A DNA stretch of 34,758 nt from a virus (lineage: Duplodnaviria > Caudoviricetes), in IMG/VR virus record IMGVR_UViG_3300027751_000967, positions 1 to 34,758 of that record. One strand, written 5' to 3'. Numbering within the stretch: the stretch's first letter is position 1; every line of letters begins with the position of its first letter. The translations under genes were made by a program, and so were the position numbers. The notes under the pieces were generated by a model. It did no database searches. It worked only from the letters and a program-made list of their open reading frames with translations, and was not told the origin of the DNA. Below are positions 4,217-31,649 of this stretch, one piece after another.

Positions 4217-4486
4217 TTAGTCAATTACCTTATCAGCCAGTTCACCAGCTTCTACACCAACAGCGGTGTCCCCATCGGGACCTTGTTGTTGAGGTGCATT
4301 CTGTCTTAGATAAGCTTCAAGCTTATTCCTTAACATTCCTACACCAGCTAGTTCTTGACCTTGGAACCCGCCTCTTGTTGACACTACGTCAATAAGTTGC
4401 AAGATTGTAGAGAGGTCGTTCAAGTTAATGACTACTGTCTCTTCTTGTTGTTGGCCACCGAAGTTGCCATTTTGTACATTATCCAT
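4217..4486 (-). CDS. Hypothetical protein
   Basis: 89-aa ORF with SD AAGGA, in the g45 operon. Confidence 0.75.
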   Translation of the reverse strand: MDNVQNGNFGGQQQEETVVINLNDLSTILQLIDVVSTRGGFQGQELAGVGMLRNKLEAYLRQNAPQQQGPDGDTAVGVEAGELADKVID

Positions 4487-4491
4487 ATCAA

Positions 4492-5154
4492 TTATCCTTT
4501 ATTATAAGTCGACTTTGAATCTATCGCCACAAAGTATGTGACACCGGTGCCTTTGAATTCAGAGATACCCTTTGAACAAATGGTAACTTTGTAATCCATT
4601 GGCATGAGCTTTAAGTTATCAGTTTTAATGATTACCTTAAACTCATCGGCAGTTTCCCCGATTTCAACGCCAAAGTCATCTGCGTTATCGTTTGCACTGT
4701 CGATTGCTTTCAGATAACACTTGCCGCTTTCGCCAACAAATGCGATTTCTGAAAATTGTAGAACACCTGCTGCTTTCAGTACTGAAGAAAGATCACTTTC
4801 TGTTACCTCTACAACAACGTCTTCCGACGGTATATTTATATCTTTTTCAGGCGGTGTATGAATCATTGATATATCTGCGTAGATATATTTGGTTCGTCTC
4901 TTGCCTTCTGAGATAATAAAATACTTATCACCAAACTCTACGTCTGGATCTGTATATAAGCTTAGGATTGACAAGAATCTAGAAAGATCGTAGATACAAG
5001 CTTCTGCTGGTATCGTGTCTTGGATTTCTGCAATCGCAATAAGCGTCTTTTCGGGAGTAATCGTCTTAATAGTACTACCGGGCTTTAGCAAAACTGATTT
5101 GTTAATTGCGGTAAAACTTTTTAAGACACTCAAGGTTTCGTTAGAAAATTTCAT
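4492..5154 (-). CDS. g45: Sliding clamp gp45
   Basis: MKFSNETLSVLKSFTAINKS, IYDLSRFLSILSL; synteny with g44. Confidence 0.95.
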   Translation of the reverse strand: MKFSNETLSVLKSFTAINKSVLLKPGSTIKTITPEKTLIAIAEIQDTIPAEACIYDLSRFLSILSLYTDPDVEFGDKYFIISEGKRRTKYIYADISMIHTPPEKDINIPSEDVVVEVTESDLSSVLKAAGVLQFSEIAFVGESGKCYLKAIDSANDNADDFGVEIGETADEFKVIIKTDNLKLMPMDYKVTICSKGISEFKGTGVTYFVAIDSKSTYNKG

Positions 5155-5185
5155 TATATATATTTCTCCTAGTTAATGAATGTAT

Positions 5186-5214
5186 ATTATAACACACTTT
5201 CATCTATTTGTCAA
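5186..5214 (-). promoter_or_regulatory. Sigma70-type promoter for g45; -35 lies in the last codons of the upstream gene
   Basis: TTGACA-17-TATAAT. Confidence 0.8.
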
Positions 5215-6067
5215 CTGTTTTGTAAGACTTTTTATTAGAAGTCGAGTCAGCAGTTGCGGTTACACCAAGCTCTGCTATAGAGCCCATTCCACCATTAAAT
5301 ACGTGGGTACCAACATGGTTGAGATGCATCCAAGGACACATCCAAACCTTTAGGCCAGCATCACGTGCTTTATGACAGAAGAAGTAATCTTCTGATAAGT
5401 AGCGCTTGGATTCGGGATCGATAACACAATCGAAAAATGCTGTAATTTCTCTTGTACCATCAAATTGTTCTGTTCGTGCGTGGTCAGGTAGGTATGCTAA
5501 CTCAGGGTAAGCTTCTTTGTACTTCATTAGTACATCCCTTGGTATTAACATAAATCCTGTACCAGCTTCTTGTACTTCAACTGGTTCTGATAATTTGAAT
5601 TGCTTCATTCCTTTAACGGGGTTGAACACAAAGTCAGATGTGAACCTAGATAATTCAAATGGATTATCATCTGCTTTACCCATTTGAGCTGCTTTAGCAA
5701 CCTTTTCCCAAGCAATTGTTTTCTTAGGATATGGGCCAGTTACGATCTGATACTTGTCTGGATCTTGTAGATGTACACCAAGTAAAGCAAGAGCATCTTT
5801 GGGATTAAACGCAATATCAGCGTCAATAAACAATAAGTGAGTACAGTCAGATCTTAAGAACTCATCTACAATGTAGTTACGTGCTCTTTGTACTAGACTC
5901 TCATTAAATAAGAAATAGTACTTTAACGGAATACCGTGTGTGGAGCATAACATACTCAAGTCATTAGTTGCTTTGGTATACATACCACTAGCTTGGCCAC
6001 CATACATTGGTGTACCAACGAAGATGCTATACTTTCTTAGCTCTTCGGTTTTAATTTCAATTTTCAT
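5204..6067 (-). CDS. GT-A fold (GT2-like) glycosyltransferase
   Basis: FVGTPMYGG, RARN, LLFIDAD (DxD), GTGFMLI, LSEDYFFC, C-terminal LNHVG. Confidence 0.75.
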   Translation of the reverse strand: MKIEIKTEELRKYSIFVGTPMYGGQASGMYTKATNDLSMLCSTHGIPLKYYFLFNESLVQRARNYIVDEFLRSDCTHLLFIDADIAFNPKDALALLGVHLQDPDKYQIVTGPYPKKTIAWEKVAKAAQMGKADDNPFELSRFTSDFVFNPVKGMKQFKLSEPVEVQEAGTGFMLIPRDVLMKYKEAYPELAYLPDHARTEQFDGTREITAFFDCVIDPESKRYLSEDYFFCHKARDAGLKVWMCPWMHLNHVGTHVFNGGMGSIAELGVTATADSTSNKKSYKTVDK

Positions 6068-6693
6068 TAGATTTGCTCCATATCATTTTCAGCTCTAGCG
6101 ATCGCTTGTAGTCTAAGCACATCTGCTAATACGTCCCAAGAACTATCATGTTGTTTAAATGCTCTTTCCCATAGTTTATCATCAGCGATCGGGCAGAAAC
6201 CGTTTTTTGTGTCAAAATTAAATTTGGCATCAATATAAGTCCGCATGTCACGAACCATATAATATTTTAGATAAGTATTAAGATGGTTGCCTCTTTTTTG
6301 GCTATCAAAAAGTCTTGTCAAGATTACAGGATCAAAAGCATTACCTCTTGTCCACCAGTGACCAATATTCTCATCAACAACTAGATTATGAAAGTTAGAT
6401 ACAAACTCTTTAACAGTCAAGTCTTGCTGTGTTGGTTTGACACGAGCACGTACTTCTTTATCTTGCTTAGACCAAAATTCTAAAACAGAATCTTCGATCT
6501 TATATCCATAATCTTTTACTTGCTCTTGAACATTCAATTTAAATCTACGAGTCTTACTGATATCTTTCAGACCATAAGGGTTTTGTGTAAACTCATCCCA
6601 ATCGAAAATCATAATTGAACAGTCAACGACTGCACACGTAGTTGGGTCAACACCCATTGTTTCAAAGTCAAGTACTAGGTTTTTCTTTTTCAT
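6067..6693 (-). CDS. dexA: DexA-like 3'-5' exonuclease (DEDDh)
   Basis: LDFETMG, WTRGNAFD, RDMRTYI, HDSSWD; resembles T4 DexA. Confidence 0.85.
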   Translation of the reverse strand: MKKKNLVLDFETMGVDPTTCAVVDCSIMIFDWDEFTQNPYGLKDISKTRRFKLNVQEQVKDYGYKIEDSVLEFWSKQDKEVRARVKPTQQDLTVKEFVSNFHNLVVDENIGHWWTRGNAFDPVILTRLFDSQKRGNHLNTYLKYYMVRDMRTYIDAKFNFDTKNGFCPIADDKLWERAFKQHDSSWDVLADVLRLQAIARAENDMEQI

Positions 6694-7934
6694 TATGTCA
6701 TAAACTCTGTAATATCAACTGTTGATGTGGTCTCACGTATTCTTTGAGACATATTGTCTTGGTACATGAATGAAGCATCTTCCATAGGAAGTTTGCGCTC
6801 GATCGCTGCTTTGACTTGAGTAGCCATATCTCTAGCAGTATTGAACGGAACATTTTGACAAATGTGATTGACGCTTTTCTCAGGATCAAGTAATTCATAA
6901 TCTTGTGGAAGACCCATGATGGTCATGGCTTCTCTATAGTTTATATATCTATCTTCTACAGGGTGAGTCAGAACGTGAGGCATATGTACAACGAATGCAC
7001 CAATATGTTTGACAGGAATAATTGTTCCTCGCCACATTACACCTTTACCTGACTTAAGCTTTTCGTATCGTCTTAAACACTTTGCAGCTTCTCTTTCAAG
7101 GCCTTGAGCAGCCATATATTCAGATAACTCTTTGTAGTTGCATTGTCCTTTATAATCACCAAGGATCATTTCACTTTCAACATTAAAAGAAGGCTTTGTG
7201 AAAGTTTCATCTTCTCTTAACTCTTTTGCAAACTCTGCGTGAGTCATTCCGCCTTTGATTTCTTCTAAGAAGTACTTATAGTAAGGATCATCAACAGATG
7301 GAATCTTAGAGTTAATTGTTTCTGTTTGGAAATTACTTTTATTCTCCATCAATAATTGAGCGATCGTTGGATGTTCTTTTTTGAAGTAATCAAATACAGG
7401 AACTTTATTCTTAAAGTAATCTCTTTTCCAAAAGAAGTAGAATGATCGTCTTCGTATCTGCGGAGTACCATGTAATAATGTCTTCGTAGTATAGATGGTC
7501 ATATTATAACCAGCTTCGTTGGCAGTTTTAAGAAGTTTCTTTCTCATAAATGCGCCAACATTGGTTGCCAAAGCAGGAGCATTCTCACCCCATAATACTT
7601 TAGGACCAATCTCGTTCAATACAAACTTAGTTGATTTTTCCATCCATTGGTTATTTGGATTGTCTTCACCGTAAGAACTGTGATAACTACTTAAGCCTGC
7701 ACAAGGACATACTGATGAAACAACATCAACTTTCTTGTAACGCTTAGGTGCATTATCTCCATCAATAATATGGTAAGGTACGTCGACACCTTGTTGTGCA
7801 TAATGATTTCTTAGATGTTTCTCATTACCTTCAAATCCGCTATAAGTCATCATATATTCTGGAGTGACTCCGTAAGCATCATCTGAAGCTAATACCTCAC
7901 CACCGATCAGTGGTATAATTGCTGCGTGTTTCAT
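6693..7934 (-). CDS. C5-cytosine DNA methyltransferase homolog with atypical SAM-binding motifs
   Basis: Motif IV CPCAGLS, VI GENAP, VIII PQIRRR, IX REAMTIMGLP present; motif I reads IIPLIGGE and motif X reads ICQNVP. Confidence 0.8.
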   Translation of the reverse strand: MKHAAIIPLIGGEVLASDDAYGVTPEYMMTYSGFEGNEKHLRNHYAQQGVDVPYHIIDGDNAPKRYKKVDVVSSVCPCAGLSSYHSSYGEDNPNNQWMEKSTKFVLNEIGPKVLWGENAPALATNVGAFMRKKLLKTANEAGYNMTIYTTKTLLHGTPQIRRRSFYFFWKRDYFKNKVPVFDYFKKEHPTIAQLLMENKSNFQTETINSKIPSVDDPYYKYFLEEIKGGMTHAEFAKELREDETFTKPSFNVESEMILGDYKGQCNYKELSEYMAAQGLEREAAKCLRRYEKLKSGKGVMWRGTIIPVKHIGAFVVHMPHVLTHPVEDRYINYREAMTIMGLPQDYELLDPEKSVNHICQNVPFNTARDMATQVKAAIERKLPMEDASFMYQDNMSQRIRETTSTVDITEFMT

Positions 7935-9055
7935 TGTACTATTGCCTCTAATTCTTGTTGTTGTGCTCTTTTATCGAGTGGGTGATTATCGTACAGACAT
8001 TCTTTTTGAGCTTTACCCAACCGTGTTTTTTCTTCGATAGTCATAGCTTCAACACTCGCAAGAGTATTACCAACATATGCTTCCCCGTATATTGAACCTT
8101 CTTTATCTGAACATACAAGTATAGACTCTACATCTGCTACTTGTTGAACACGAGATCTCCACCAACCTGAACCAGCATGATAATACTCTGGCATCATACA
8201 ACCCCAGTTTTCATTATAGATTCTACACATATCAGGTTCTTTAACACGGAAGGTTTGGATACCAGCAGTGAGTTTGGTTTCTCGTCTTGGGCCAAAATTC
8301 AATACGTCCCAAGTAGGTTTTTGTTTGTTGAACCATGGCATGGTTTTACTTTGAACGATAGATGAGAATACCCATTGTAATTTCTTTTCTTCGGGTGGAA
8401 GAATAATTGGCTCATCATCAAAGAAACTTAGAATACCTGGATCTTCTCCATAGTTATTCTCAGGCCTACGATTTAGGTTGTAAGGATTTGGATTGTAATT
8501 AACAATGTCACCTTTATAGTCAAGCTTAAAGGCGTTGTTGTCACCCCCGTCAAAAGAACAGAGAAGCAATGTATTTGTTTTTCTGTTTACAATTTCACAA
8601 CCTTCAATGAATGTATCAATATGATCACCAAGCTTTTCAAGTTTAGTATCACCTTTATAGAGGTCAGCCAAGTATTTGTTTGTTCCATACTCTAGGAACG
8701 GTTTACCTGTTTCTTTCCACTCTTTAAGATTCTCTTGGTATAGTTTAAACGATACAAATACTTCACGTACTTGCCAATCGTCGTTTCCGAGAATAGCGTC
8801 AGGCCTTGCTTTGAGTACATACAGTGCATCAAAAGCATGGTGACTAAAGGATTTTACAGATGATAGATACACGATTACTTTGTCGTAGGCAGTTATATTC
8901 TCACCAATACTCACAGTTCTTTGGTCGACCTCGTGTCCCATATCTTCAAGACAGCGAATCAACGAATAGTGTGAGTTTAGGATTTTGAGTTCTTTACCTA
9001 GAAAATAATCACGTGTACATTGCTCTTTATTAAAGCCAGTGATTAAGATTTTCAT
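7931..9055 (-). CDS. GT-B glycosyltransferase resembling T4 DNA beta-glucosyltransferase
   Basis: Colinear blocks match remembered T4 BGT: LEDMGHEVD, YDKVIVYLSS, VLNFGPRRE, RVQQVADVESILV. Confidence 0.6.
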   Translation of the reverse strand: MKILITGFNKEQCTRDYFLGKELKILNSHYSLIRCLEDMGHEVDQRTVSIGENITAYDKVIVYLSSVKSFSHHAFDALYVLKARPDAILGNDDWQVREVFVSFKLYQENLKEWKETGKPFLEYGTNKYLADLYKGDTKLEKLGDHIDTFIEGCEIVNRKTNTLLLCSFDGGDNNAFKLDYKGDIVNYNPNPYNLNRRPENNYGEDPGILSFFDDEPIILPPEEKKLQWVFSSIVQSKTMPWFNKQKPTWDVLNFGPRRETKLTAGIQTFRVKEPDMCRIYNENWGCMMPEYYHAGSGWWRSRVQQVADVESILVCSDKEGSIYGEAYVGNTLASVEAMTIEEKTRLGKAQKECLYDNHPLDKRAQQQELEAIVQ

Positions 9056-9073
9056 TCAATTTCTCCATAATTA

Positions 9074-10159
9074 TCAAAAGAAGCTACTTAGAGAAGCTTC
9101 TGCATTATTATTATCTATTATAACACATTCTATAGTTTTGTCAACTACTTTTTCAATATTTTTTTGCCATGCCTTAAGAGAGTGTTTTTCTTTAGTCATT
9201 TCAGAGATTTCAAGTCTCTGTTCAAAAGTAGTTTTGTTTAGCGATCGTACGATATCGGCAAGGTCGTTACCTTTTACTGACGTTCGTACTTTCGTTATAT
9301 GTTTATTTATGACCGGTATCTGCTCGGATGCATGGGTATCAGTTGAGTTAGTTACTAGTACAGTTGGCAAACCGTGGGCTAATGCTTCAAGAGCAGTAAT
9401 ACCCCAAGTCTCTACAGGACAAGTTGAAATATAACATCCAGCTTGTGCCATATAAGCCATAGTGTCTTTATAAGACAAACCACGAATAACTTCATTTGGT
9501 TTTTCCCAAGCTAAGTTGTCTTCGTGATATTTAAGATGGTCACCGTACAGTAATTCAGCTACGTGAGAAGTCAGTACAACATTATGTAATCCTGAGCCGT
9601 TTAGTTTCTTAGGCATCCAAAATGGATTCTTTGTCTTATCAGTACGGCCTACAGTAACTGCATCGTAAGTACATTCAAGCACCTTCTCATCGCCCATACT
9701 AAAAGCAGAATCAATAAAATCTACGATCGGTAGTGGTTTACCTTCAACCCTTTGGCTAAGTTTATCCATACCAATATGTTGATGTCTAGATACAAATGCA
9801 ACTACTCCACCATTTGCTTGAAACTCATGCATCTGTTGCATGTGACCAATTTTAGAAATACCACCAGCAGCAGTATGACTAATCCACAATATAGGTGTAT
9901 TAGTTTTTGCTTGTAATCTAGTAGTAAGTGGTGCGTTATCATAATTAACAATAACAACATCTGGTTGGTAAGTATCAATAGCAGCAGTGATTTTATCAGT
10001 CACTCTACGCTTCTTTCGATCTTCATCTGTAAAATGTACAGGGATTACATCGTCAAAGTTTTGATAGATTAATTGAGCAAATCTCTCAATTCCACCGATA
10101 ACAACAGAGTCTGTAATCTCAATATTGTTTCTTGTAAAGTATGGTAGAAGTATTCTCAT
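9074..10159 (-). CDS. GT-B glycosyltransferase (GT4-like, retaining)
   Basis: N-terminal GGIERF, VGRTDKTKN, ETWGITALEALAHGLP (E-x7-E). Confidence 0.85.
   Translation of the reverse strand: MRILLPYFTRNNIEITDSVVIGGIERFAQLIYQNFDDVIPVHFTDEDRKKRRVTDKITAAIDTYQPDVVIVNYDNAPLTTRLQAKTNTPILWISHTAAGGISKIGHMQQMHEFQANGGVVAFVSRHQHIGMDKLSQRVEGKPLPIVDFIDSAFSMGDEKVLECTYDAVTVGRTDKTKNPFWMPKKLNGSGLHNVVLTSHVAELLYGDHLKYHEDNLAWEKPNEVIRGLSYKDTMAYMAQAGCYISTCPVETWGITALEALAHGLPTVLVTNSTDTHASEQIPVINKHITKVRTSVKGNDLADIVRSLNKTTFEQRLEISEMTKEKHSLKAWQKNIEKVVDKTIECVIIDNNNAEASLSSFF
9117..9144 (-). promoter_or_regulatory. Promoter embedded in the GT4 3' end, driving the BGT-like/MTase-like/dexA/GT-A genes
   Basis: TTGACA-16-TATAAT with the GTTGACAAA and TGTGTTATAAT flanks seen at the other promoters. 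Confidence 0.6.
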
Positions 10160-10210
10160 TGTTCAGGTAGTTCTCACTGGTACATTATAAAGGTGTGTTT
10201 ATATATTATA

Positions 10211-10681
10211 TTATTTATGAAGTTCTAACACCGTAGGTCCTTGTAGGAACTCTGTGTCGACTCCAGCTTCAACAAATAGATTAAGGGATTTAGAAAATGA
10301 AGCAACCCATTTTTCAGGAATGTTTCCATCAGTTGCCATAACAACTCTTTTAACACCAACTTGAATGATACCTCTTGCACAGTCGTTGCAGGTCGGTAGC
10401 CCCCAAACATAAATGGTAGAATCTTTTAAAGATGTACCACTGTATGTAGCGTTATAGATTGCATTCATTTCAGCGTGAATTACTGTTTCGTATTTCACTT
10501 CTTTATCTTCGTAACGTTCAGGAGTATCGGCTATTCCCTTAGGAAAGCCATTGTAACCTGTAGCTAATACTCTACGTTCGTCGTTTACAATTACTGCACC
10601 AATTTGTGTACTTGGATCTTTTGACCAAGTAGCTACTTCTCGGGCTAGTCTTGCAAATCTTGCATCCCATTTATCAGCCAT
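10211..10681 (-). CDS. cd: dCMP deaminase
   Basis: SKDPSTQIGAVIV, TGYNG, HAEMNAI, PTCNDC. Confidence 0.93.
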   Translation of the reverse strand: MADKWDARFARLAREVATWSKDPSTQIGAVIVNDERRVLATGYNGFPKGIADTPERYEDKEVKYETVIHAEMNAIYNATYSGTSLKDSTIYVWGLPTCNDCARGIIQVGVKRVVMATDGNIPEKWVASFSKSLNLFVEAGVDTEFLQGPTVLELHK

Positions 10682-11336
10682 TCATTAATTCCTCAATGAA
10701 ATTAAAGTGTCTTTCGTACACATGGAAGTTAGAAGCTGTCCAGATTAGATTACCAGGCTCTACACCGAGAGCAAAGGCAAGATCATTTTGAACATACTTA
10801 GCCCAAGCATAATCATTATTATAGCCGAATACAGCATCGTTGGATCTCATCAAATAGTGAGATTCAAGTTTACCATCACGAATATAAAATGTATTTGCAT
10901 ATGTACACATAAAGTCGTTCATACCATCACGTGACATGTCAACGTGCATCGATGGACGATTGTAGATCATAGTAGCTCTACGGCTGTTTGGATTATTCTT
11001 TAACTCACGTAGAACATGCTGATATTGGCTACCATTCTCTTTTGAGTAGATACACCAACCATAATTTGAATTAATCATACCTTCAGTAGAAGCAATTGAT
11101 TTCCAAATCTGTGGTGTCTCACCAGGTATATCATTAACGTTTAACGATTGTGATTTGTACCACTCAAGTTCACGTTCAATATACTTGTAAGCTGGTTTAC
11201 GAATAACATAATCTTGATCAGCGATAAATGTAGCGCCAATCATTTCAATAGTCTTGGCGCCAGTTCTGTCGATAACAAAATCTTTAGCTAGATATTTGAA
11301 AGATAACTCTTTTCTTATATTAGCGACAGTCAACAT
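10674..11336 (-). CDS. g42: dCMP hydroxymethylase (T4 gp42-like, thymidylate synthase fold)
   Basis: RELEWYKS, DIPGETPQIW, INSNYGW, SRR, DFMCT (catalytic Cys), MRSNDAVFGYNND (Asp at the dCMP-specificity position), HVYERHF. Confidence 0.9.
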   Translation of the reverse strand: MLTVANIRKELSFKYLAKDFVIDRTGAKTIEMIGATFIADQDYVIRKPAYKYIERELEWYKSQSLNVNDIPGETPQIWKSIASTEGMINSNYGWCIYSKENGSQYQHVLRELKNNPNSRRATMIYNRPSMHVDMSRDGMNDFMCTYANTFYIRDGKLESHYLMRSNDAVFGYNNDYAWAKYVQNDLAFALGVEPGNLIWTASNFHVYERHFNFIEELMNG

Positions 11337-11590
11337 TAGATGATCTCCAACAACGCTTCCATATCTTCAGCTTCGGTTACAACTGAACTGATGTTTTGCC
11401 TATGAAAAACTCTTGCAGCTTTTCTAAGGGTTGCTTTAGGAATATCAACGTCTTCTGCAAGACTTTCAATTGCTTCTTTCTGAAAAGCTCTTTCTGATTC
11501 CTGTCTTAGGAAAGAATTGCTGATCTCGTCAAAGCAGCCACGAATGCGTTTTTTGTCTTCGTCGCTCGAAGGTAAAATAATATTACTCAT
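11336..11590 (-). CDS. dsbA: dsDNA-binding protein DsbA-like
   Basis: 84-aa helical protein, EISNS...KEAIESLAE...LRKAARVFHRQN. Confidence 0.75.
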   Translation of the reverse strand: MSNIILPSSDEDKKRIRGCFDEISNSFLRQESERAFQKEAIESLAEDVDIPKATLRKAARVFHRQNISSVVTEAEDMEALLEII

Positions 11591-11934
11591 AATTTAGTAC
11601 TCCTGTTAAATACATCTTTAGTTGAATCTTGACCTGTAATACCTTGACGACAATAAGAGACAAAGAAACTTGAATAGTTAATTAAGTCTTTTGCTGAATC
11701 TTCAAGGGACTCAAAGTTAGGATCATAATCATCTGACTGCATCGCTTCCATAACTGATTTCATACGTAGCATTTTTGCGTGCATGATATCATGTATAGTC
11801 GTGATTCCGTTAGGATAGTAGTCAGCTTGTTGAACAGTCGAGTTTGGATTTTGATAATCTCTCGACTTTTTCAATTGTAAGTCAACGCACTCTTGTAGTA
11901 CATCAACTGAAACTGGGTTAACCTGTTTGGTCAT
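11587..11934 (-). CDS. DUF1599/nucleotide-modification-associated all-alpha (MazG-like) protein
   Basis: KKSRDY, KMLR, ESLEDSAKDLINY pattern. Confidence 0.65.
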   Translation of the reverse strand: MTKQVNPVSVDVLQECVDLQLKKSRDYQNPNSTVQQADYYPNGITTIHDIMHAKMLRMKSVMEAMQSDDYDPNFESLEDSAKDLINYSSFFVSYCRQGITGQDSTKDVFNRSTKL

Positions 11935-11957
11935 TGTTTACTCCATAATAAAAGTAT

Positions 11958-11986
11958 ATTATAACACATCTAAATGTATTTGTCAA
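11958..11986 (-). promoter_or_regulatory. Sigma70-type promoter for the DUF1599-dsbA-g42-cd operon
   Basis: TTGACA-17-TATAAT. Confidence 0.8.
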
Positions 11987-11993
11987 CCCTTTT

Positions 11994-12221
11994 TTAAACA
12001 ACTTTAGGTGGGATTGGTGCAGCAAATGATCCAATAGTGTTTCTCTTATCTTCTGCTTCTGCAAGTTTTCCAATTTCGCCGTCTAGCGTTTCAATGATGC
12101 CAGGATGTTCAGCCACCCCAACTACGTTTTGGAGCAATATAGCTATGTTTGCTGTATGCTCTGCAATCTGCGCGTCGTATTTCATAATAAGCGCGTTGAT
12201 TATTGTTTCTTTCATTTCCAT
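11994..12221 (-). CDS. Small hypothetical protein of a type seen in marine T4-like phages
   Basis: N..VGVAEHPGIIET pattern; SD AGGAG. Confidence 0.7.
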   Translation of the reverse strand: MEMKETIINALIMKYDAQIAEHTANIAILLQNVVGVAEHPGIIETLDGEIGKLAEAEDKRNTIGSFAAPIPPKVV

Positions 12222-12233
12222 GATCTCTATCTC

Positions 12234-12635
12234 CTATAGATCTTTAAATTTACCGTGATTTCCTTCATGAGAAGGCGGATACCAGGACTCTGGTTTAATT
12301 AGGTCAGGTACTCCGAGTGGATTCGGTCTTGATGGTTTTTCTCCAACCTCTTTGTTCATATTTGCTAATAACACTTCGTCCCAAGCTTTATAGGGATTAA
12401 CACCGAAGGCGTCAAGTGTACCGATAGCAACAACACACAGATCAATCAAGCCATCTACAATTTCTTCTGCGTCGTTCTCAGCTACTGCTTTACGTGTTTC
12501 TTCCAACTCTTCGTTTAGAAACTCAACACGAAACTTTAGAAACTCTAATAGTTTCTCTGGATTAGCTTCAACCCATTGTCTTGTAAGATATTTACCTTGC
12601 ATTAAGTGTATATCTTCTACCCAATTTTTACTCAT
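12234..12635 (-). CDS. MazG-like NTP pyrophosphohydrolase (candidate dCTPase)
   Basis: EELEE...EIVDGLIDL acidic motif, ANMNK, DLIKPESW. Confidence 0.75.
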   Translation of the reverse strand: MSKNWVEDIHLMQGKYLTRQWVEANPEKLLEFLKFRVEFLNEELEETRKAVAENDAEEIVDGLIDLCVVAIGTLDAFGVNPYKAWDEVLLANMNKEVGEKPSRPNPLGVPDLIKPESWYPPSHEGNHGKFKDL

Positions 12636-13163: not shown

Positions 13164-13192
13164 ATTATAACACATTTAGAACCATTTGTCAA
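13164..13192 (-). promoter_or_regulatory. Sigma70-type promoter overlapping the g43 stop
   Basis: TTGACA-17-TATAAT. Confidence 0.8.
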
Positions 13193-15732
13193 CCGAAAAA
13201 TGAGTCTAATGTATCTTGTTTCTCTCCAGTCCAGCCAAGAGGCGATATGATGTTTTCAATAGGACTGAGGAATACTTTGTTAAATTGAGTTTCGTAGTCA
13301 ATGTATTTCTCTAAGCCAAACTCTTTTGGTAAAGCGCTTGGAAATGAGATTACATTCTCACGAATAGGGTTTGGTACTTTAAGATAAACGTATTTGATCT
13401 TATCGCCACCTTTAACAGGCTCGAATCGCTTAGTAAGCTTTTTCTCTGCGAGTTGGTGGTTAAATAAGATACAGCCACGAACATGGATAGGACAACCTTT
13501 ATTATAAAGAGTTGTTCTGTTTTCATATTTCTGTATGTTATCAGTACCAGAGTTTCTAGCAACTTCTTCAGCAGGTAGTTTATAGAACTCTTGTCTGAAG
13601 TTTTCAATGAAGTCTTGAGTTTGTTCTTCACCTTCGTTTAGAATAACACTGAAGATCTCACGCATTTTATCACGGCAGACTTCAGGTGTGCTTGATCGTA
13701 CAGACTCAAGACCTGTTACACTGATCTTTGGCTTTTCGTAATGAACACCTTCTGAGTTGAGAGTATTTAGTATGTAACGTTTCTTAGCAATAAAGATTGC
13801 TCGATCGTTAATCTTCTCTCGTTTCATTACCATAGCATTACGATAGGCACCCATGTCAGATGCAAGACGTTCGTAGCCTTGTTCAATGACCTCTTCGATC
13901 TTAGTCTGGCAGACTTTATCTAGGAACTCTTCTCCTGTCTTACGATCAATGTCTGTAGTACCATAGACTTTTTCGATCAGTGAAGCGAAGTCAACATAGA
14001 TTGAGTCAGTGTCAATATAGATGATATAGTCATGGTCTTTTGTTTTGAGTACCTTGTTGAGATATTCATTTACAGACTTTTGAGCATATCGAATCGAGAG
14101 TTGACCAGACGTTGTAATAGCTTCTGCCATTTCTCCAATATAATATAAGAAGTAGATGTTTGCTGTAGCTCCGTAGAGTGAGTTCATCGAAATCTTAATA
14201 GACATTTGAGAATTATGTAATTGGTTAGCTTCTGTCTTCAGTCGTTTCTTTTCTCTTGGGTCAGTTTCAACCTCAAGTTGTTGTTCAACTGCAAGCATCT
14301 GCTGTTTGATAAGAGCACGTTCATCGTAGTACTCTTGAATGATGCCTGGGATAATACCGACTTTTTCATTACTGAAACATACACCATTAGCGCCAACCGA
14401 CATACCATTCTTGTTTTTGAATTGACCATTAAGTACCATGTCTTGAGTTACATACTCACGTTCGTCTGGCATATAAGTTTCAGGCGACATATTGTATTGT
14501 AACATTAAGTGAGGATACAGTGAGTTCAAGTCAAACGATACAACCCATGGATACATACCAGGTACTGGATCTTTAACATAGCCACCAACAAGATCTGCAC
14601 CACGACGGCCAGGTGACTCTTTGATAGGTGGAACGATTTTGTCTTTCATTAATCGTCTGTAGATAATAGATTCCCATATACCAACAGTACCGAAAGCGTC
14701 TTGGTAGTTTACACCACCACCATAAGCAACTGTCATAACAAGAGCAAGTAGAGATGTTTCTTCTTCCATTCTTACAATGAGCTGTGTGTCTTTAAGGTTG
14801 TAGTCAAGATATAGTTGTGGGTTCTTCTCGTATAAGTCGTTTAGATTACCATACTCAGAGTAGTCAAGTTTCTTCTCACCAAGAATAACGTGAGCAATAT
14901 GGTCAAGTTTAAATGATTCTTGAGGACCATACTTGTAACCGAACTTCTTGAAACAATCCATATAGTCAATAACAGAAACACCTGAGATGTTGTAAGAAGA
15001 TTGCATCTTACCAAAGAACTCTCGATTGTATTTGTTAACGTTTTTCCAAGGACTGAGTCGAGCTGCAACGTCTTCACCCATCAAGCTCATAATACGAGTT
15101 ACGAGGTATTGAATATCAAAGTATTGAACGTTCCAACCTGTTACAATATCAGGATAGTCTGCTACCCATAATTCTACGAACCTTCGTAGTAGTTGCATTT
15201 CATTATCAAATTTAATAAAGACAATGTCGTCTGGATCAATACCAGTAACAGTTTGTGTCTTATCGTAGTCTTTGCGACCAAGTAGGAAGTACTTATCACT
15301 TTTAGAAGACTTGTAAGCGATCGATGTGATCTCTTTATCTGCTATTTCAACGTTAGGATAGCCATCAGCGATATCAACCTCAATATCAAAAGATACTATA
15401 TTAACATCTTTGAAATCATATTTGATATCGTCAGGATAGTTTTCTTGTATGAACTGTGTAATGTAATTTGTATTACCAAAGATCTTCATGTTGGAAACAC
15501 CTTTGTATTCCTCGATGAAGTCTTTGCTTTCAGCCATAGAACCAAATTGGTGTGGACTGATTTTGTAATTACCTTTGAGGGGCGTATAGCCCTCTTCGCC
15601 TGCTTTGGCGCTGCTTAGGTAGAGTGTTGGTTTATACGGTACTTTGTACGAGAAACGTTTACCGTTCTCATAACCGCGCCATAGAATGTTTTTGCCATAT
15701 CGCTCGACTGAGGTGTAGAATGCTGTCATCAT
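13189..15732 (-). CDS. g43: Family B DNA polymerase gp43
   Basis: FDIEV, TGWNVQYFD, SFDLNSLYP, KISMNSLYG, YIDTDS, KKRY; C-terminal clamp-binding TLDSFF. Confidence 0.98.
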   Translation of the reverse strand: MMTAFYTSVERYGKNILWRGYENGKRFSYKVPYKPTLYLSSAKAGEEGYTPLKGNYKISPHQFGSMAESKDFIEEYKGVSNMKIFGNTNYITQFIQENYPDDIKYDFKDVNIVSFDIEVDIADGYPNVEIADKEITSIAYKSSKSDKYFLLGRKDYDKTQTVTGIDPDDIVFIKFDNEMQLLRRFVELWVADYPDIVTGWNVQYFDIQYLVTRIMSLMGEDVAARLSPWKNVNKYNREFFGKMQSSYNISGVSVIDYMDCFKKFGYKYGPQESFKLDHIAHVILGEKKLDYSEYGNLNDLYEKNPQLYLDYNLKDTQLIVRMEEETSLLALVMTVAYGGGVNYQDAFGTVGIWESIIYRRLMKDKIVPPIKESPGRRGADLVGGYVKDPVPGMYPWVVSFDLNSLYPHLMLQYNMSPETYMPDEREYVTQDMVLNGQFKNKNGMSVGANGVCFSNEKVGIIPGIIQEYYDERALIKQQMLAVEQQLEVETDPREKKRLKTEANQLHNSQMSIKISMNSLYGATANIYFLYYIGEMAEAITTSGQLSIRYAQKSVNEYLNKVLKTKDHDYIIYIDTDSIYVDFASLIEKVYGTTDIDRKTGEEFLDKVCQTKIEEVIEQGYERLASDMGAYRNAMVMKREKINDRAIFIAKKRYILNTLNSEGVHYEKPKISVTGLESVRSSTPEVCRDKMREIFSVILNEGEEQTQDFIENFRQEFYKLPAEEVARNSGTDNIQKYENRTTLYNKGCPIHVRGCILFNHQLAEKKLTKRFEPVKGGDKIKYVYLKVPNPIRENVISFPSALPKEFGLEKYIDYETQFNKVFLSPIENIISPLGWTGEKQDTLDSFFG

Positions 15733-18561: not shown

Positions 18562-19176
18562 TTAGTCCTCGCTTGTACTTAAGTCAAGCTTGTTATTTTT
18601 GGCTGTTTCAATCATCTGCTCTTCTCTAAGTTTATTAACGTTGTCAACCCACTGCATAGTAGCTAACATTTTGTTGCGCTGTTTTGTAATTTTTGCTTTC
18701 TTTGTAAGAGCACGATCGTACTTCATTCTTGAAACATGGTCTTTATATACTACACCGTTGAGATGGTCTAACTCATGCATAAAGCATCGAGCACCATAAC
18801 CTTCGAGTAGTCCACTTTGTTTTTCGCCATTCTCATCTAACCATTCTGCCTGAACAGTTTTTGGTCGTTTAACGTGGAGGAATACATCTGGGAAACTCAA
18901 GCAACCTTCAACTTCAAGTTCAGTATCGTTGTCGAACTCTAAAACTTTAGGATTGATTACCATAATAGCAGTATCTTTTGATTCTCCCATAACAAAGCAT
19001 CTCATATCTAAACCAACTTGACAAGCAGATAAGCCGATACCTTTGCGCTTCACCATCATATCAACCATTTGTGATTTTAGATCTGCAGCATCTTCAAATA
19101 TTTGCTTGACCTCTTCAAAATCAAAATCCTTTAGCTCTTTGTTAAGAATAGGATCGGGGTAGTATACTAACTTCAT
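18562..19176 (-). CDS. def: Peptide deformylase
   Basis: GIGLSACQVG, EGCLS, HELDHLNG. Confidence 0.95.
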   Translation of the reverse strand: MKLVYYPDPILNKELKDFDFEEVKQIFEDAADLKSQMVDMMVKRKGIGLSACQVGLDMRCFVMGESKDTAIMVINPKVLEFDNDTELEVEGCLSFPDVFLHVKRPKTVQAEWLDENGEKQSGLLEGYGARCFMHELDHLNGVVYKDHVSRMKYDRALTKKAKITKQRNKMLATMQWVDNVNKLREEQMIETAKNNKLDLSTSED

Positions 19177-19598
19177 AATTTACCTTCTTCTCTCATTTGT
19201 GCACGAATAGATGTTGCAGATATCTTATGGATATCTTCGCCAAGGTCATGTTCTGTAAATGTGTAACCTACTCCACGACCAAAGCTAATGTCAACAATAT
19301 TCGGCACCTCTATAATTAAGTACTCACGGCCATTTTCATAACCATGTTCTCTTAGTCCATTTTCAATACCTTCAATAGTTTGTATCATACCAAACGGATT
19401 ATCGTCCTGTTTGGCTGTACGCCCTGCTCCAGCATCACCTTCATATTTAAAAACGTCTCGTACCATTATAACAACTTGTCCCGTGATTGTCAAGGCTTTT
19501 TTAAATAATTGTGTGTGGCCATCATGCCAAGGCTGCCATCTGCCTAGCATCTGAACCGTTGGCTTTTTATAATCAAAGAATTCTTCTGGATTAATCAT
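19173..19598 (-). CDS. HIGH-family (cytidyltransferase-like) nucleotidyltransferase
   Basis: GRWQPWHDGH, DNPF, ISATSIR. Confidence 0.8.
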   Translation of the reverse strand: MINPEEFFDYKKPTVQMLGRWQPWHDGHTQLFKKALTITGQVVIMVRDVFKYEGDAGAGRTAKQDDNPFGMIQTIEGIENGLREHGYENGREYLIIEVPNIVDISFGRGVGYTFTEHDLGEDIHKISATSIRAQMREEGKL

Positions 19599-19812
19599 TT
19601 CCCTTTACTCCAAATTTAATATGATTATACCATAGCCTTTCGTGGCCGTAGTATAATACAAACTTAATAACTATATCAGCAAGAAATACTGCACCGACTG
19701 CCTTAGTTGGTAATCCAAAGTATAAGGCTATTAAGGCTGTTGTAATACTTGCTATAAATCTCCATGTCACTGCTTTCGCTAAGTGTCTCGCTTTTGTTAC
19801 TCTCTCACTCAT
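19591..19812 (-). CDS. DUF2061-like small membrane protein
   Basis: KAVTWR...LYYGHERLW with two hydrophobic helices. Confidence 0.8.
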   Translation of the reverse strand: MSERVTKARHLAKAVTWRFIASITTALIALYFGLPTKAVGAVFLADIVIKFVLYYGHERLWYNHIKFGVKGND

Positions 19813-20243
19813 TAATCTTCCGTGTCTAACTTAAAAGTAGCTCTAATAATTGCAGCCGTAGTAACATGCACATCAGGTCTAAATGTATGTACAATGTGAT
19901 CTACTGAAGTTGGCTTCTCAAAGATCTTATTAGTATCTTCAAAACGACCTTCTTTAATTGTATCCATCCAAACTGAATAGTCTGGTGCAAAATCAACACG
20001 AGCTTTCTCAAACGGACAAACAAAGTCTGTAATAGCAAACTTACCAGCTCGAACTACACCTTCCGATAGGAACTTCATTCTCAATGCTTGTCTCATACGA
20101 CCTTCATCACTAAAATCCCAGTCGTCATATTGTTCTCTTACCTGGTCAGCGTTTATCCAAACACCTCCAAGCTCTTTTGCCAATGGTTCAGCAAGATAAC
20201 TCTTACCAGATCCTGGCAGACCAAAAATCAAAATCTTCTTCAT
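19812..20243 (-). CDS. Adenylylsulfate-kinase (CysC)-like P-loop kinase
   Basis: GLPGSGKS, NADQVR, DFSDEGR, DFVCP, FEKP. Confidence 0.75.
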   Translation of the reverse strand: MKKILIFGLPGSGKSYLAEPLAKELGGVWINADQVREQYDDWDFSDEGRMRQALRMKFLSEGVVRAGKFAITDFVCPFEKARVDFAPDYSVWMDTIKEGRFEDTNKIFEKPTSVDHIVHTFRPDVHVTTAAIIRATFKLDTED

Positions 20244-23832: not shown

Positions 23833-24531
23833 ATGTTTAATCCCAAATCTTTCAACTTTGAAGTCGACACTGCAGACCTCTCAATCAATGAAGTAACTAA
23901 TCTTCATAACATATTTTTCGTCTCTAAAGATTACGACTGGTGGTACGAGGTTTTACCTGATGATGTCGTAGTTGACATTGGCGCTAGTGTAGGAATGTTC
24001 TCAGCTAAAGCTTTAGACGCTGGTGCTAAGAAAGTTTATATGATCGAACCAAGTAAGAAGCTTTTAAAAACTGCGGTCAAGAATGTGTCCGATTATATTA
24101 TAGGTAACAACGAATTACCAAGAGTCGTTCCAATCAACGCAGCAGTCGGCCGTACTGATATTGATCTATCCAACGTATATGGTAATAATGAAGTAAAGCT
24201 AATGAGCTTATTAGAATTCTGTGTAGATTTTGATGTCGAACAAATTGACTTCTTAAAAATTAACGCAGCTGGTGCAGAATACAATATCTTACACAGAGAT
24301 ATGTTTGATTTTCTAGGAACTAAGGTTCGCCATATAGCAGTACGTTGCCATTTAGATGCTCAGTATGGTAGTATAGATAAATTCAGAGAGTGGCGAGATA
24401 CTGTGTTAAATCCAATGATTGCACTCGGTAGAGTTTATGTTCAAAACGATACGTATATTGAAAAGATTCAAAGCGATCAGTTCGCCGAACTAATGCCAAA
24501 AAGCTTTATGTTGTATATTAAGAATTGGTAG
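23833..24531 (+). CDS. FkbM-family SAM-dependent methyltransferase
   Basis: VVVDIGASVG, MIEP, INAAVG, IDFLKINAAGAEY (canonical KiDvEGaE altered). Confidence 0.75.
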   Translation: MFNPKSFNFEVDTADLSINEVTNLHNIFFVSKDYDWWYEVLPDDVVVDIGASVGMFSAKALDAGAKKVYMIEPSKKLLKTAVKNVSDYIIGNNELPRVVPINAAVGRTDIDLSNVYGNNEVKLMSLLEFCVDFDVEQIDFLKINAAGAEYNILHRDMFDFLGTKVRHIAVRCHLDAQYGSIDKFREWRDTVLNPMIALGRVYVQNDTYIEKIQSDQFAELMPKSFMLYIKNW

Positions 24532-30752: not shown

Positions 30753-30810
30753 CAAAAACAGTTGACAAACACCATTTGATTTGATATAATATACTCATAA
30801 ATTAAATAAA
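30753..30810 (+). repeat. 58-bp exact promoter repeat, copy 1
   Basis: Contains TTGACA-17-TATAAT; identical to 31592-31649. Confidence 0.9.
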
Positions 30811-31591: not shown

Positions 31592-31649
31592 CAAAAACAG
31601 TTGACAAACACCATTTGATTTGATATAATATACTCATAAATTAAATAAA
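31592..31649 (+). repeat. 58-bp exact promoter repeat, copy 2
   Basis: Identical to 30753-30810. Confidence 0.9.

Follow-up and report, generated by a model that had tools for sequence, protein, structure and literature searches.

Here we describe a gene block from an uncultured marine T4-like phage, located at positions 5204 to 12635 on the minus strand of the IMG/VR virus record IMGVR_UViG_3300027751_000967 (34,758 nucleotides, i.e., 34.8 kb, estimated to be 19% complete; this whole stretch is referred to below as the window). We read this block, with a probability of about 0.6, as a system in which a gp42-type enzyme would replace cytosine with 5-hydroxymethylcytosine (hmC), two GT-B glycosyltransferases (GTs) riding the sliding clamp would decorate it, and an enzyme with the fold of the C5-cytosine methyltransferases (C5-MTases; below, the methylase-fold enzyme) would act on hmC without S-adenosylmethionine (SAM). 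The block lies between g43 (13189-15732) and g45 (4492-5154). The original prediction, which had taken these genes for a new cytosine-hypermodification system, correctly described it as contiguous and co-directional, every open reading frame (ORF) that it named being found there on the minus strand; its last four genes indeed overlap (by 4 nt between the BGT-like and methylase-fold genes and by 1 nt each at the methylase-fold/DexA and DexA/GT-A junctions). The genes at the center of this reading are:

10674..11336, minus strand: gp42-type dCMP hydroxymethylase (T4 gp42, 1b49, at 247 bits, E 1.2e-72)
12234..12635, minus strand: MazG-like dNTP pyrophosphohydrolase (PF01503 at E 9.5e-11; phrog_671/18404; weak match to DR2231)
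7931..9055, minus strand: putative DNA GT of the T4 beta-glucosyltransferase (BGT) fold, with an internal clamp-type peptide, ILSFF
9074..10159, minus strand: GT4-type GT-B glycosyltransferase (PF00534 at E 8.8e-7), with a C-terminal clamp-type peptide, SLSSFF
6693..7934, minus strand: C5-MTase-fold enzyme (PF00145 at E 7.8e-18), with a C-terminal clamp-type peptide, ITEFM

Beyond its match to T4 gp42, the g42 product scores 59 bits against the thymidylate-synthase entries 9iqu/9iqc and about 60 bits against everything else in PDB. It has a catalytic Cys144 together with Asp141, Asp167 (in RSND) and Asp175, and this triple-aspartate signature recurs in 120 of the 122 g42 records from the loci of relatives. 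According to the diagnostics set out in the relevant parts of Lee et al. 2026 (PMC13326640; E. coli ThyA numbering), Asp177 denotes a dCMP substrate, an acidic residue at 143 a non-methyl product and Asn169 a hydroxylase. In the window's enzyme Asp175 fills the N177 position, as expected of a dCMP-specific enzyme, and Asp141 the L143 position, as expected for a hydroxymethyl product. Because Asp175, Asp141 and Asp167 agree with these diagnostics, the g42 product likely makes 5-hydroxymethyl-dCMP (hmdCMP), and the predicted hydroxymethylase with replacement of C by hmC is borne out by a gp42-type sequence signature. A hydroxylase of the RB69/DLP3/RL38J1 type (D169N), which would yield 5hodCMP and thus 5-hydroxycytosine (5hoC), is excluded by Asp167.

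The MazG-like enzyme is likely the dCTPase that clears normal dCTP, a substrate that we infer. Its homologues, among the matches listed (best 40 of 159), include those of Pootjesviridae and of phages of the Xp12-like group. In G001 (194.6 kb), which is the closest complete relative and has the same block along with a gp1-type kinase and ThyX, no gp56-named family was found among the 139 of 262 ORFs scanned, and a MazG-like gene is present; the dNMP kinase (gp1) of that genome belongs to phrog_139 and was not found in the window fragment. Two MazG-fold proteins had been predicted: the first is firm by its PF01503 match, whereas the second matches only DUF1599, and weakly. This protein and the deaminase were detected as follows:

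11587..11934, minus strand: DUF1599-like protein (weak DUF1599 match, E 0.025; DUF1599 on 48% of the members of its Atlas cluster)
10211..10681, minus strand: dCMP deaminase (PF00383 at E 9e-22; phrog_174; lacking in many relatives)

The DUF1599-like gene directly adjoins g42 in the Serratia phages PS2, Muldoon and SP1 (63-65% identity) and also occurs within the Xp12/PaMx74 module, suggesting that its product regularly accompanies dCMP-modifying synthases; MazG genes, too, are repeatedly found with it beside dCMP-type synthases, in T4-like phages of Serratia as well as in the Xp12/PaMx74 group. Deaminase and synthase pairs are described as enriched in modified-cytosine contigs (bioRxiv 10.1101/2024.12.05.627091).

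The structural model of the BGT-like enzyme (pLDDT 94.6) has as its best Foldseek matches only T4 BGT (E 5e-7), and VIA-align places it closest to 1c3j (Z 17.9, rmsd 3.4, 292 residues aligned), followed by T4 AGT (Z 16.6). It has no Pfam match at E 0.01, hence lying outside the BGT Pfam family, and shares 11-14% identity with T4 BGT; its invariant D92 and D93 fall at a place similar, by sequence position only, to the catalytic D100 of T4 BGT. This enzyme likely adds the first sugar. In all three cultured phages that we checked (Aeromonas 25, Erwinia FBB1 and C48C1, of 29 records matched) a UDP-galactopyranose mutase (UGM) gene directly adjoins the BGT-like gene, and in C48C1 a TET gene lies on its other side; UGM is also present in 11 of the 80 BGT-like loci from IMG/VR. 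This linkage suggests galactofuranose, or another non-glucose hexose, as the sugar; the former is plausible for the family as a whole, and for the window's phage we give a non-glucose first sugar drawn from the host pool about an even chance. As a separate observation, the TET-like, BGT-like and UGM genes of C48C1 stand in a row (L009:10586-14033) in a genome without a PF00303 synthase, and the TET protein ends in a clamp-type peptide.

The GT4 protein shares 28% identity with a Pootjesviridae GT, which is itself 60% identical to RL38J1 gp237, the proposed later glucosyltransferase of that phage (PMC13326640), and is thus likely a second DNA GT; in close relatives the GT4 gene is either replaced by a GT8 gene or missing. 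With a BGT-fold GT from a UGM-linked family and a second GT, the predicted decoration likely does extend beyond a single glucose.

A short peptide further sorts the genes of the block. The pattern [LIV]xxF[FLMIA] at the C-terminus, which we take to resemble the gp45-binding peptide of T4, was found in 19/19 g43 polymerases, 69/80 methylase-fold enzymes and 11/13 GT4 proteins, as against 0/62 GT-A, 0/30 DexA and 0/74 g42 proteins and 42/535 other ORFs. In the BGT-like proteins the same pattern occupies an internal loop (45/46, versus 66/696 background windows). By this measure, the enzymes predicted to act on DNA (BGT-like, GT4 and methylase-fold) are set apart from the rest. Co-folding of the tail of the methylase-fold enzyme with gp45 gave a score of 0.47 (best control 0.02), with a contact agreement of at least 54% and a partner pLDDT of at least 38. 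This mark is reached by 116/157 solved and 2/215 mismatched pairs, though at scores of 0.60 or less by only 18/157 solved pairs and by both of the mismatches, so that the model weakly suggests binding of this tail to gp45. The T4 alpha-glucosyltransferase is described as co-purifying with gp45 (PMC13216743).

At least 2426 database proteins make up the family of the methylase-fold enzyme, whose model (pLDDT 93.4) is close to M.MpeI (Z 25.0), M.HhaI (24.4) and CmoX (23.7). The catalytic motifs IV (P77-C78), VI (E117-N118) and VIII (Q159/R161/R163) are invariant in 98/98 homologues, as are P8-L9-I10-G11-G12, Y31 and C359-Q360-N361, and also F34/N37/H40. The canonical motif I consensus of C5-MTases is FxGxG; here motif I reads I/V-P-L-I-G-G, the first Gly being replaced by an invariant Leu (98/98). 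Judging by sequence and secondary structure, S/T30-Y31 stands where an acidic ribose-binding residue would be expected after strand 2, and Gln360 at the position of M.HhaI Asn304 (for these reference residues, see PMC12783734). The gene is under purifying selection (pN/pS 0.08-0.20). Since the cytosine-attacking residues are kept but the SAM motifs are invariantly changed, we tentatively suggest, at somewhat less than even odds, that this enzyme acts on hmC without SAM. Two precedents are on record: in vitro, C5-MTases deprived of SAM can remove 5-substituents or join thiols to hmC (PMC8829811), and phages repurpose the C5-MTase fold, as in CmoX (PMC12783734). A carboxymethyltransferase of the CmoX type was rejected, as the window's enzyme lacks SPPC and Arg350 and has VCPC and Gln instead. 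The atypical C5-MTase of the original prediction is therefore present, with rebuilt SAM motifs, and was underweighted there, being the most constant partner of g42.

Cultured carriers of the family are XG4 and the S-TIM5 group (about 30% identity), with Bacillus phage G (gp301) as a more distant case. Directly upstream of its methylase-fold gene XG4 has gp42, a HAD gene, an NTP-transferase/kinase and two GTs. The sole ThyA-family gene of S-TIM54 lies 2 kb from the methylase-fold gene and has Asp177 and a Cys at 143; ThyX is encoded separately in this phage, which also has an AGT-like gene. In phage G, an Asp177 synthase and two AGT-like genes lie no more than 13 kb from the methylase-fold gene. 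A search for TET/JBP oxygenases gave 0 matches in G001, S-TIM54, XG4 and phage G, with C48C1 matching as the positive control, and on these genomes a TET-fed pathway was rejected, the window's own record being only 19% complete. As XG4, S-TIM54 and phage G all combine a dCMP-type synthase and GTs with the lack of TET, the family appears to depend on pre-made C5-modified cytosine. Searching with the XG4 protein as the query returned no relatives in viral_contigs. Among the TIM5-like cyanophages more widely (L011:5114-5956, S-TIM54; L173-L180), the gene annotated ThyA has Asp at N177 and is accompanied by ThyX and an AGT-like gene, and an ORF of 560-850 aa with no assigned function lies between the Asp177 synthase and the methylase-fold gene. 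The phage G region at about 219-234 kb (L187, L192) comprises an Asp177 synthase, a deaminase, a kinase-UDG fusion, two AGT-like genes, sugar-nucleotide enzymes and gp301.

Three other roles for this enzyme have to be weighed. The first, unlikely though the most serious contender, keeps the same pathway and sees in the enzyme an ordinary SAM-dependent C5-MTase whose pocket has diverged and which methylates stray C, protecting it against C-specific nucleases of host and phage. The full C5-MTase fold and catalytic set, the annotation of the S-TIM phage members as DNA methylases and a clamp peptide suited to a mop-up role all agree with it, and S-TIM5 DNA is reportedly methylated at all purine-C sites, a pattern that fits plain methylation equally well. 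Against it stand the change of the motif I Gly to an invariant Leu, of the acidic ribose residue to S/T and of Asn304 to Gln, and every genome examined that has a member of the family also has a dCMP-type synthase. No methylase-target dinucleotide signature was found in the window (GC 1.01, AC 1.00), nor any strong 4-mer avoidance in G001; unlike these, the stretches from DLP6 and phiM12, small samples as they are, have GGCC at 0.00-0.09. It is considerably less probable that the enzyme hydroxymethylates stray C after replication without SAM, from formaldehyde or a folate one-carbon unit, so as to complete the GT substrate. This would account for the association with GTs and the absence of TET, and bisulfite is unable to separate hmC from 5-methylcytosine (5mC); however, cells hold little free formaldehyde and the reaction would be redundant with gp42. 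C5-MTases do add aldehydes to DNA in vitro, to go by a title cited in PMC8829811. An activity other than action on hmC, SAM methylation or SAM-free hydroxymethylation is likewise improbable.

The neighborhoods of relatives revealed that these genes form a swappable cassette. In all 39 loci picked by their methylase-fold gene and having at least 7 kb of upstream DNA, g42 lies upstream of it, as the prediction of co-occurrence with g42 had implied; a BGT-like gene occurs in 8 of these loci and GT4 in 4. Likewise, in none of the 47 loci with distinct methylase-fold enzymes is the slot between g42 and the methylase-fold gene free of GT or candidate hypermodification genes, its occupants being BGT-like (18), phrog_13881 (9), HMUDK-like (8), inositol-phosphate synthase (8), AGT (8), TAGT (7), GT4 (6), GT8 (5), another GT4 (4) or another GT-B (1) genes. 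Thus, g42 and the methylase-fold gene provide a constant frame within which sugar and inositol genes swap. The supposed novelty of the gene combination was not upheld: a large uncultured T4-like lineage has it as its standard arrangement, and decorations with several sugars have already been published, by Pyle et al. for TET-fed hmC and by Lee et al. (PMC13326640) for 5hoC.

Several of the relatives' cassettes merit description in their own right. One set (L102-L106, L112, L115-L117, L131, L140-L144) has inositol-1-phosphate synthase, HAD phosphatase, HMUDK-like and phrog_13881 genes in the slot, the latter two with clamp-type tails, which makes them candidates for a non-sugar or inositol decoration of hmC. 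In another (L132-L134, L147, L149, L153-L154) a heptose-type kinase/isomerase, cytidylyltransferase or NTP-transferase gene precedes an AGT-like gene or other GT-B. A small gene of the uracil-DNA glycosylase (UDG) superfamily sits in the cassettes of L062-L093, L132 and L149, with a pyrimidine-dimer glycosylase just upstream, and the two may possibly serve in the repair of deaminated hmC. An extra phrog_799 DNA-methyltransferase-like gene often follows the deaminase within the slot, as in L049/L050, L096, L102-L106, L118, L142 and L153. The TAGT-type relative L135 has an hmC cassette, yet GCGC occurs in it at only 0.14 of the expected frequency, a strong depletion.

The third GT of the block has a different distribution:

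5204..6067, minus strand: GT-A-like protein (DAD motif; Atlas neighbors with Anp1/GT2 on 32-33% of members)

Its homologues (49-56% identity) stand directly before g45 in Cr30, DLP6 and phiM12, of which Cr30 and phiM12 have a single thymidylate synthase with Asn177 and DLP6 has none. The gene stays in place while the sugar cassette swaps; its product has no TAGT Pfam match and ends in a Lys-rich tail instead of the clamp peptide. The original prediction had three GTs, including this one, acting together in a three-step decoration of hmC. Such a pathway would be consistent with the translational coupling of GT-A to DexA within the BGT-like/methylase-fold promoter unit, with the presence of GT-A in 46 of the 56 methylase-fold loci having enough downstream DNA, and with GT-A folds that glycosylate hmC in other phages as described by Pyle et al. 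However, as GT-A is kept without a dCMP-type synthase and lacks the clamp peptide, we consider three GTs very improbable: two, rather than three, probably belong to the hmC pathway, and GT-A is probably a g45-linked gene of the lineage with another acceptor.

Combining these observations, we propose the following pathway, in which activities are partly modeled on those of T4. The gp42-type enzyme would make hmdCMP while MazG destroys dCTP, the deaminase and ThyX would supply dTMP, and a gp1-type kinase encoded elsewhere would phosphorylate hmdCMP. On newly made DNA, with the two GTs and the methylase-fold enzyme riding the gp45 clamp, the BGT-fold enzyme would put the first sugar on the hydroxymethyl group, and GT4 may then lengthen it or glycosylate sites missed by the BGT-fold enzyme. 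Finally, the methylase-fold enzyme would flip the base, with Cys78 attacking C6 as in C5-MTases and no methyl donor bound. The activated hmC might then lose formaldehyde, making the enzyme a site-selective eraser; alternatively, its hydroxyl might be exchanged for a thiol or amine held in the rebuilt pocket. GT-A, DexA and DsbA would be neighbors outside this pathway. A more specific and more speculative form of this idea is that enzymes of the PLIGG/CQNV family naturally edit hmC independently of SAM, stripping or exchanging the hydroxymethyl group at chosen sequences in at least four phage lineages, and tethered to the clamp in the T4-like ones.

Several points weigh against this proposal. 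With regard to the sugar, 69 of the 80 BGT-like loci show no UGM, and a search for UGM, which matched in 1 of 5 genomes, found none in the window, G001 and three partial relatives; hence, the sugar may be plain glucose. This leads to a further explanation, namely a simple T4-like glucosyl-hmC made by two alternative primary glucosyltransferases with the methylase-fold protein as a non-catalytic base-flipping helper. The nearest solved folds of the BGT-like enzyme, T4 BGT and AGT, agree with it, as do the lack of sugar-activation genes in the window's block and the occurrence of GT4 without a BGT-like gene (in L102, L103, L104 and L106), which indicates that GT4 is independent of the latter. 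We nevertheless hold it to be improbable given the low identity to T4 BGT, the missing BGT Pfam match, the UGM linkage of the family and a catalytic Cys invariant in 98/98 homologues. As for the methylase-fold enzyme, relatives of the BGT-like gene in the Aeromonas and Erwinia phages and C48C1 lack it (by a search without a positive control), implying that glycosylation does not require it. The IMG/VR loci represent one lineage, some of them as duplicate contigs, and the independent lineages number only four. Distances among the methylase-fold enzymes track those of g42 (r 0.59) no better than GT-A (0.64) or the g42-g45 pair (0.60), leaving co-evolution with g42 unsupported. The clamp pattern was set after viewing the tails, and the XG4, S-TIM and phage G enzymes have no clamp-type tail. 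Lastly, the reading of the SAM pocket rests on sequence motifs.

The rest of the block comprises genes that we regard as companions of the pathway:

6067..6693, minus strand: DexA-like 3'-5' exonuclease, for nucleotide salvage (PF16473; phrog_255)
11336..11590, minus strand: small DsbA-like DNA-binding protein (phrog_639, 'transcriptional regulator'; in close relatives only)
11994..12221, minus strand: 75-aa ORF, function not assigned (phrog_1811; in some relatives only; absent from the original prediction)

DexA is a variable neighbor, a DUF3310 gene taking its place in many relatives, and DsbA is probably a passenger. The other junctions overlap by 4 nt (DUF1599-like/DsbA), 1 nt (DsbA/g42) and 8 nt (g42/deaminase). 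Between g43 and MazG lie a glutaredoxin and a 102-aa ORF, and close relatives (L019-L043) have a small cytochrome c gene between glutaredoxin and MazG that the window lacks. Positions 4400-11628 are covered without a gap, and with 6 differences, by one contig of the DNA run X3, which excludes an assembly artefact as the origin of the block; near-identical DNA is found in marine metagenomes, with at least 0.90 of the window's words present in 14 runs, two of which may be its source. The RNA runs X15-X17 yielded short pieces across the block, which, being contigs that may be DNA, were not taken as proof of expression. Altogether, the window has 16 near-identical extended sigma70 promoters (GTTGACAAA...TGATATAATATAC), including:

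13192-13164, minus strand: sigma70-type promoter, perfect consensus, ahead of the 102-aa ORF, glutaredoxin and MazG
11958..11986, minus strand: sigma70-type early promoter, perfect TTGACA-N17-TATAAT, upstream of the DUF1599-like, DsbA, g42, deaminase and GT4 genes
9117..9144, minus strand: sigma70-type promoter, TTGACA-N16-TATAAT, within the 3' end of GT4 and upstream of the BGT-like, methylase-fold, DexA and GT-A genes
5214-5186, minus strand: sigma70-type promoter, perfect consensus, ahead of g45
29524-29496, 27154-27126 and 26839-26811, minus strand: further such promoters
30762-30790 and 31601-31629, plus strand: further such promoters

Their consensus suggests that the block is split over several transcripts. 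Two of them sit inside coding ends, where they read VDK (the C-termini of GT4 and GT-A). The window also encodes g43, g45, g44, g62, regA, g46/47, g55, uvsW, topoisomerase, thyX, hsp20, def and dUTPase. At 19173-20243 two ORFs correspond to the two halves of phrog_10255 (kinase; cytidylyltransferase-like), with a 73-aa ORF between them and a promoter inside; these halves are adjacent elsewhere in the G001 genome. An FkbM-family methyltransferase (23833-24531, plus strand) lies on the opposite strand outside the block.

The window's system resembles the glucosyl-hmC system of T4 and the T-even phages in its gp42-type synthase, deaminase, BGT-fold GT, clamp-associated GT and g43-g45 position; it differs in having a MazG/PRA-PH-type hydrolase and no recognizable gp56, ThyX for ThyA, GTs outside the AGT/BGT Pfam families, a swappable cassette and an extra C5-MTase-fold gene. 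With the galactosyl-glucosyl-5-hydroxycytosine system of RL38J1 and Pootjesviridae it shares several GT-Bs, the UGM link, a gp237-related GT4 and a related MazG, whereas the synthases described there are Asn169 hydroxylases yielding 5hoC, the window's Asp167 predicts hmC, and the account of the RL38J1 system reports no methylase-fold gene (PMC13326640). The clusters of C5-MTase, TET/5mYOX and GT genes (Burke et al. 2021; Pyle et al., bioRxiv 10.1101/2023.12.21.572611) likewise place a C5-MTase beside DNA GTs, with diverse hmC sugars, BGT-like GT-Bs and a GT8-like second GT as in the window's relatives; as described, however, their methyltransferase feeds 5mC to TET, whereas the window's hmC would come from gp42, TET was not found in relatives and the methyltransferase motifs are rebuilt. 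CmoX of phage S-B43 (PMC12783734, PDB 8yf3) is also a phage C5-MTase fold repurposed via a change at the Asn304 position, but it has SPPC, Arg350 and a ribose-binding Glu and sits with CmoA, whereas the window's family, a neighbor of gp42, has VCPC and Gln and lacks the acidic residue. Canonical C5-MTases (M.HhaI, M.MpeI, M.HaeIII; PF00145) share the fold and motifs IV, VI, VIII and IX; in the window's family motifs I, II and X are invariantly altered, a clamp-type tail is present and little unmodified C is expected in the genome. Pyle et al. count many neighborhoods of GT and ThyS genes with methyltransferases. Our literature searches, none phrased for exactly that pair and with supplements outside their scope, found no description of a C5-MTase tied to gp42. 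Thus, glycosyl-hmC is already known, and the rebuilt methylase-fold enzyme is the novel part.

hmC with sugars is a known type of camouflage against host nucleases, here extended to a widespread aquatic T4-like lineage, and the plug-and-play cassette offers a source of new hmC-labeling GTs. The puzzle is the retention, under purifying selection, of a cytosine-attacking enzyme in a genome expected to hold little plain C. Removal of hmC or thiol coupling without SAM is known only as a side reaction of methyltransferases in vitro, and a natural enzyme for it would represent new DNA chemistry and a tool for epigenomics. As XG4, the S-TIM5 group and Bacillus phage G, all cultured, carry the family, the question is directly testable. 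If the reading is true, the family would provide the first example of a dedicated DNA dehydroxymethylase or hmC-nucleophile ligase; the 'methylated purine-C' reported for S-TIM5 would then be an hmC-based modification left after erasure at pyrimidine-C.

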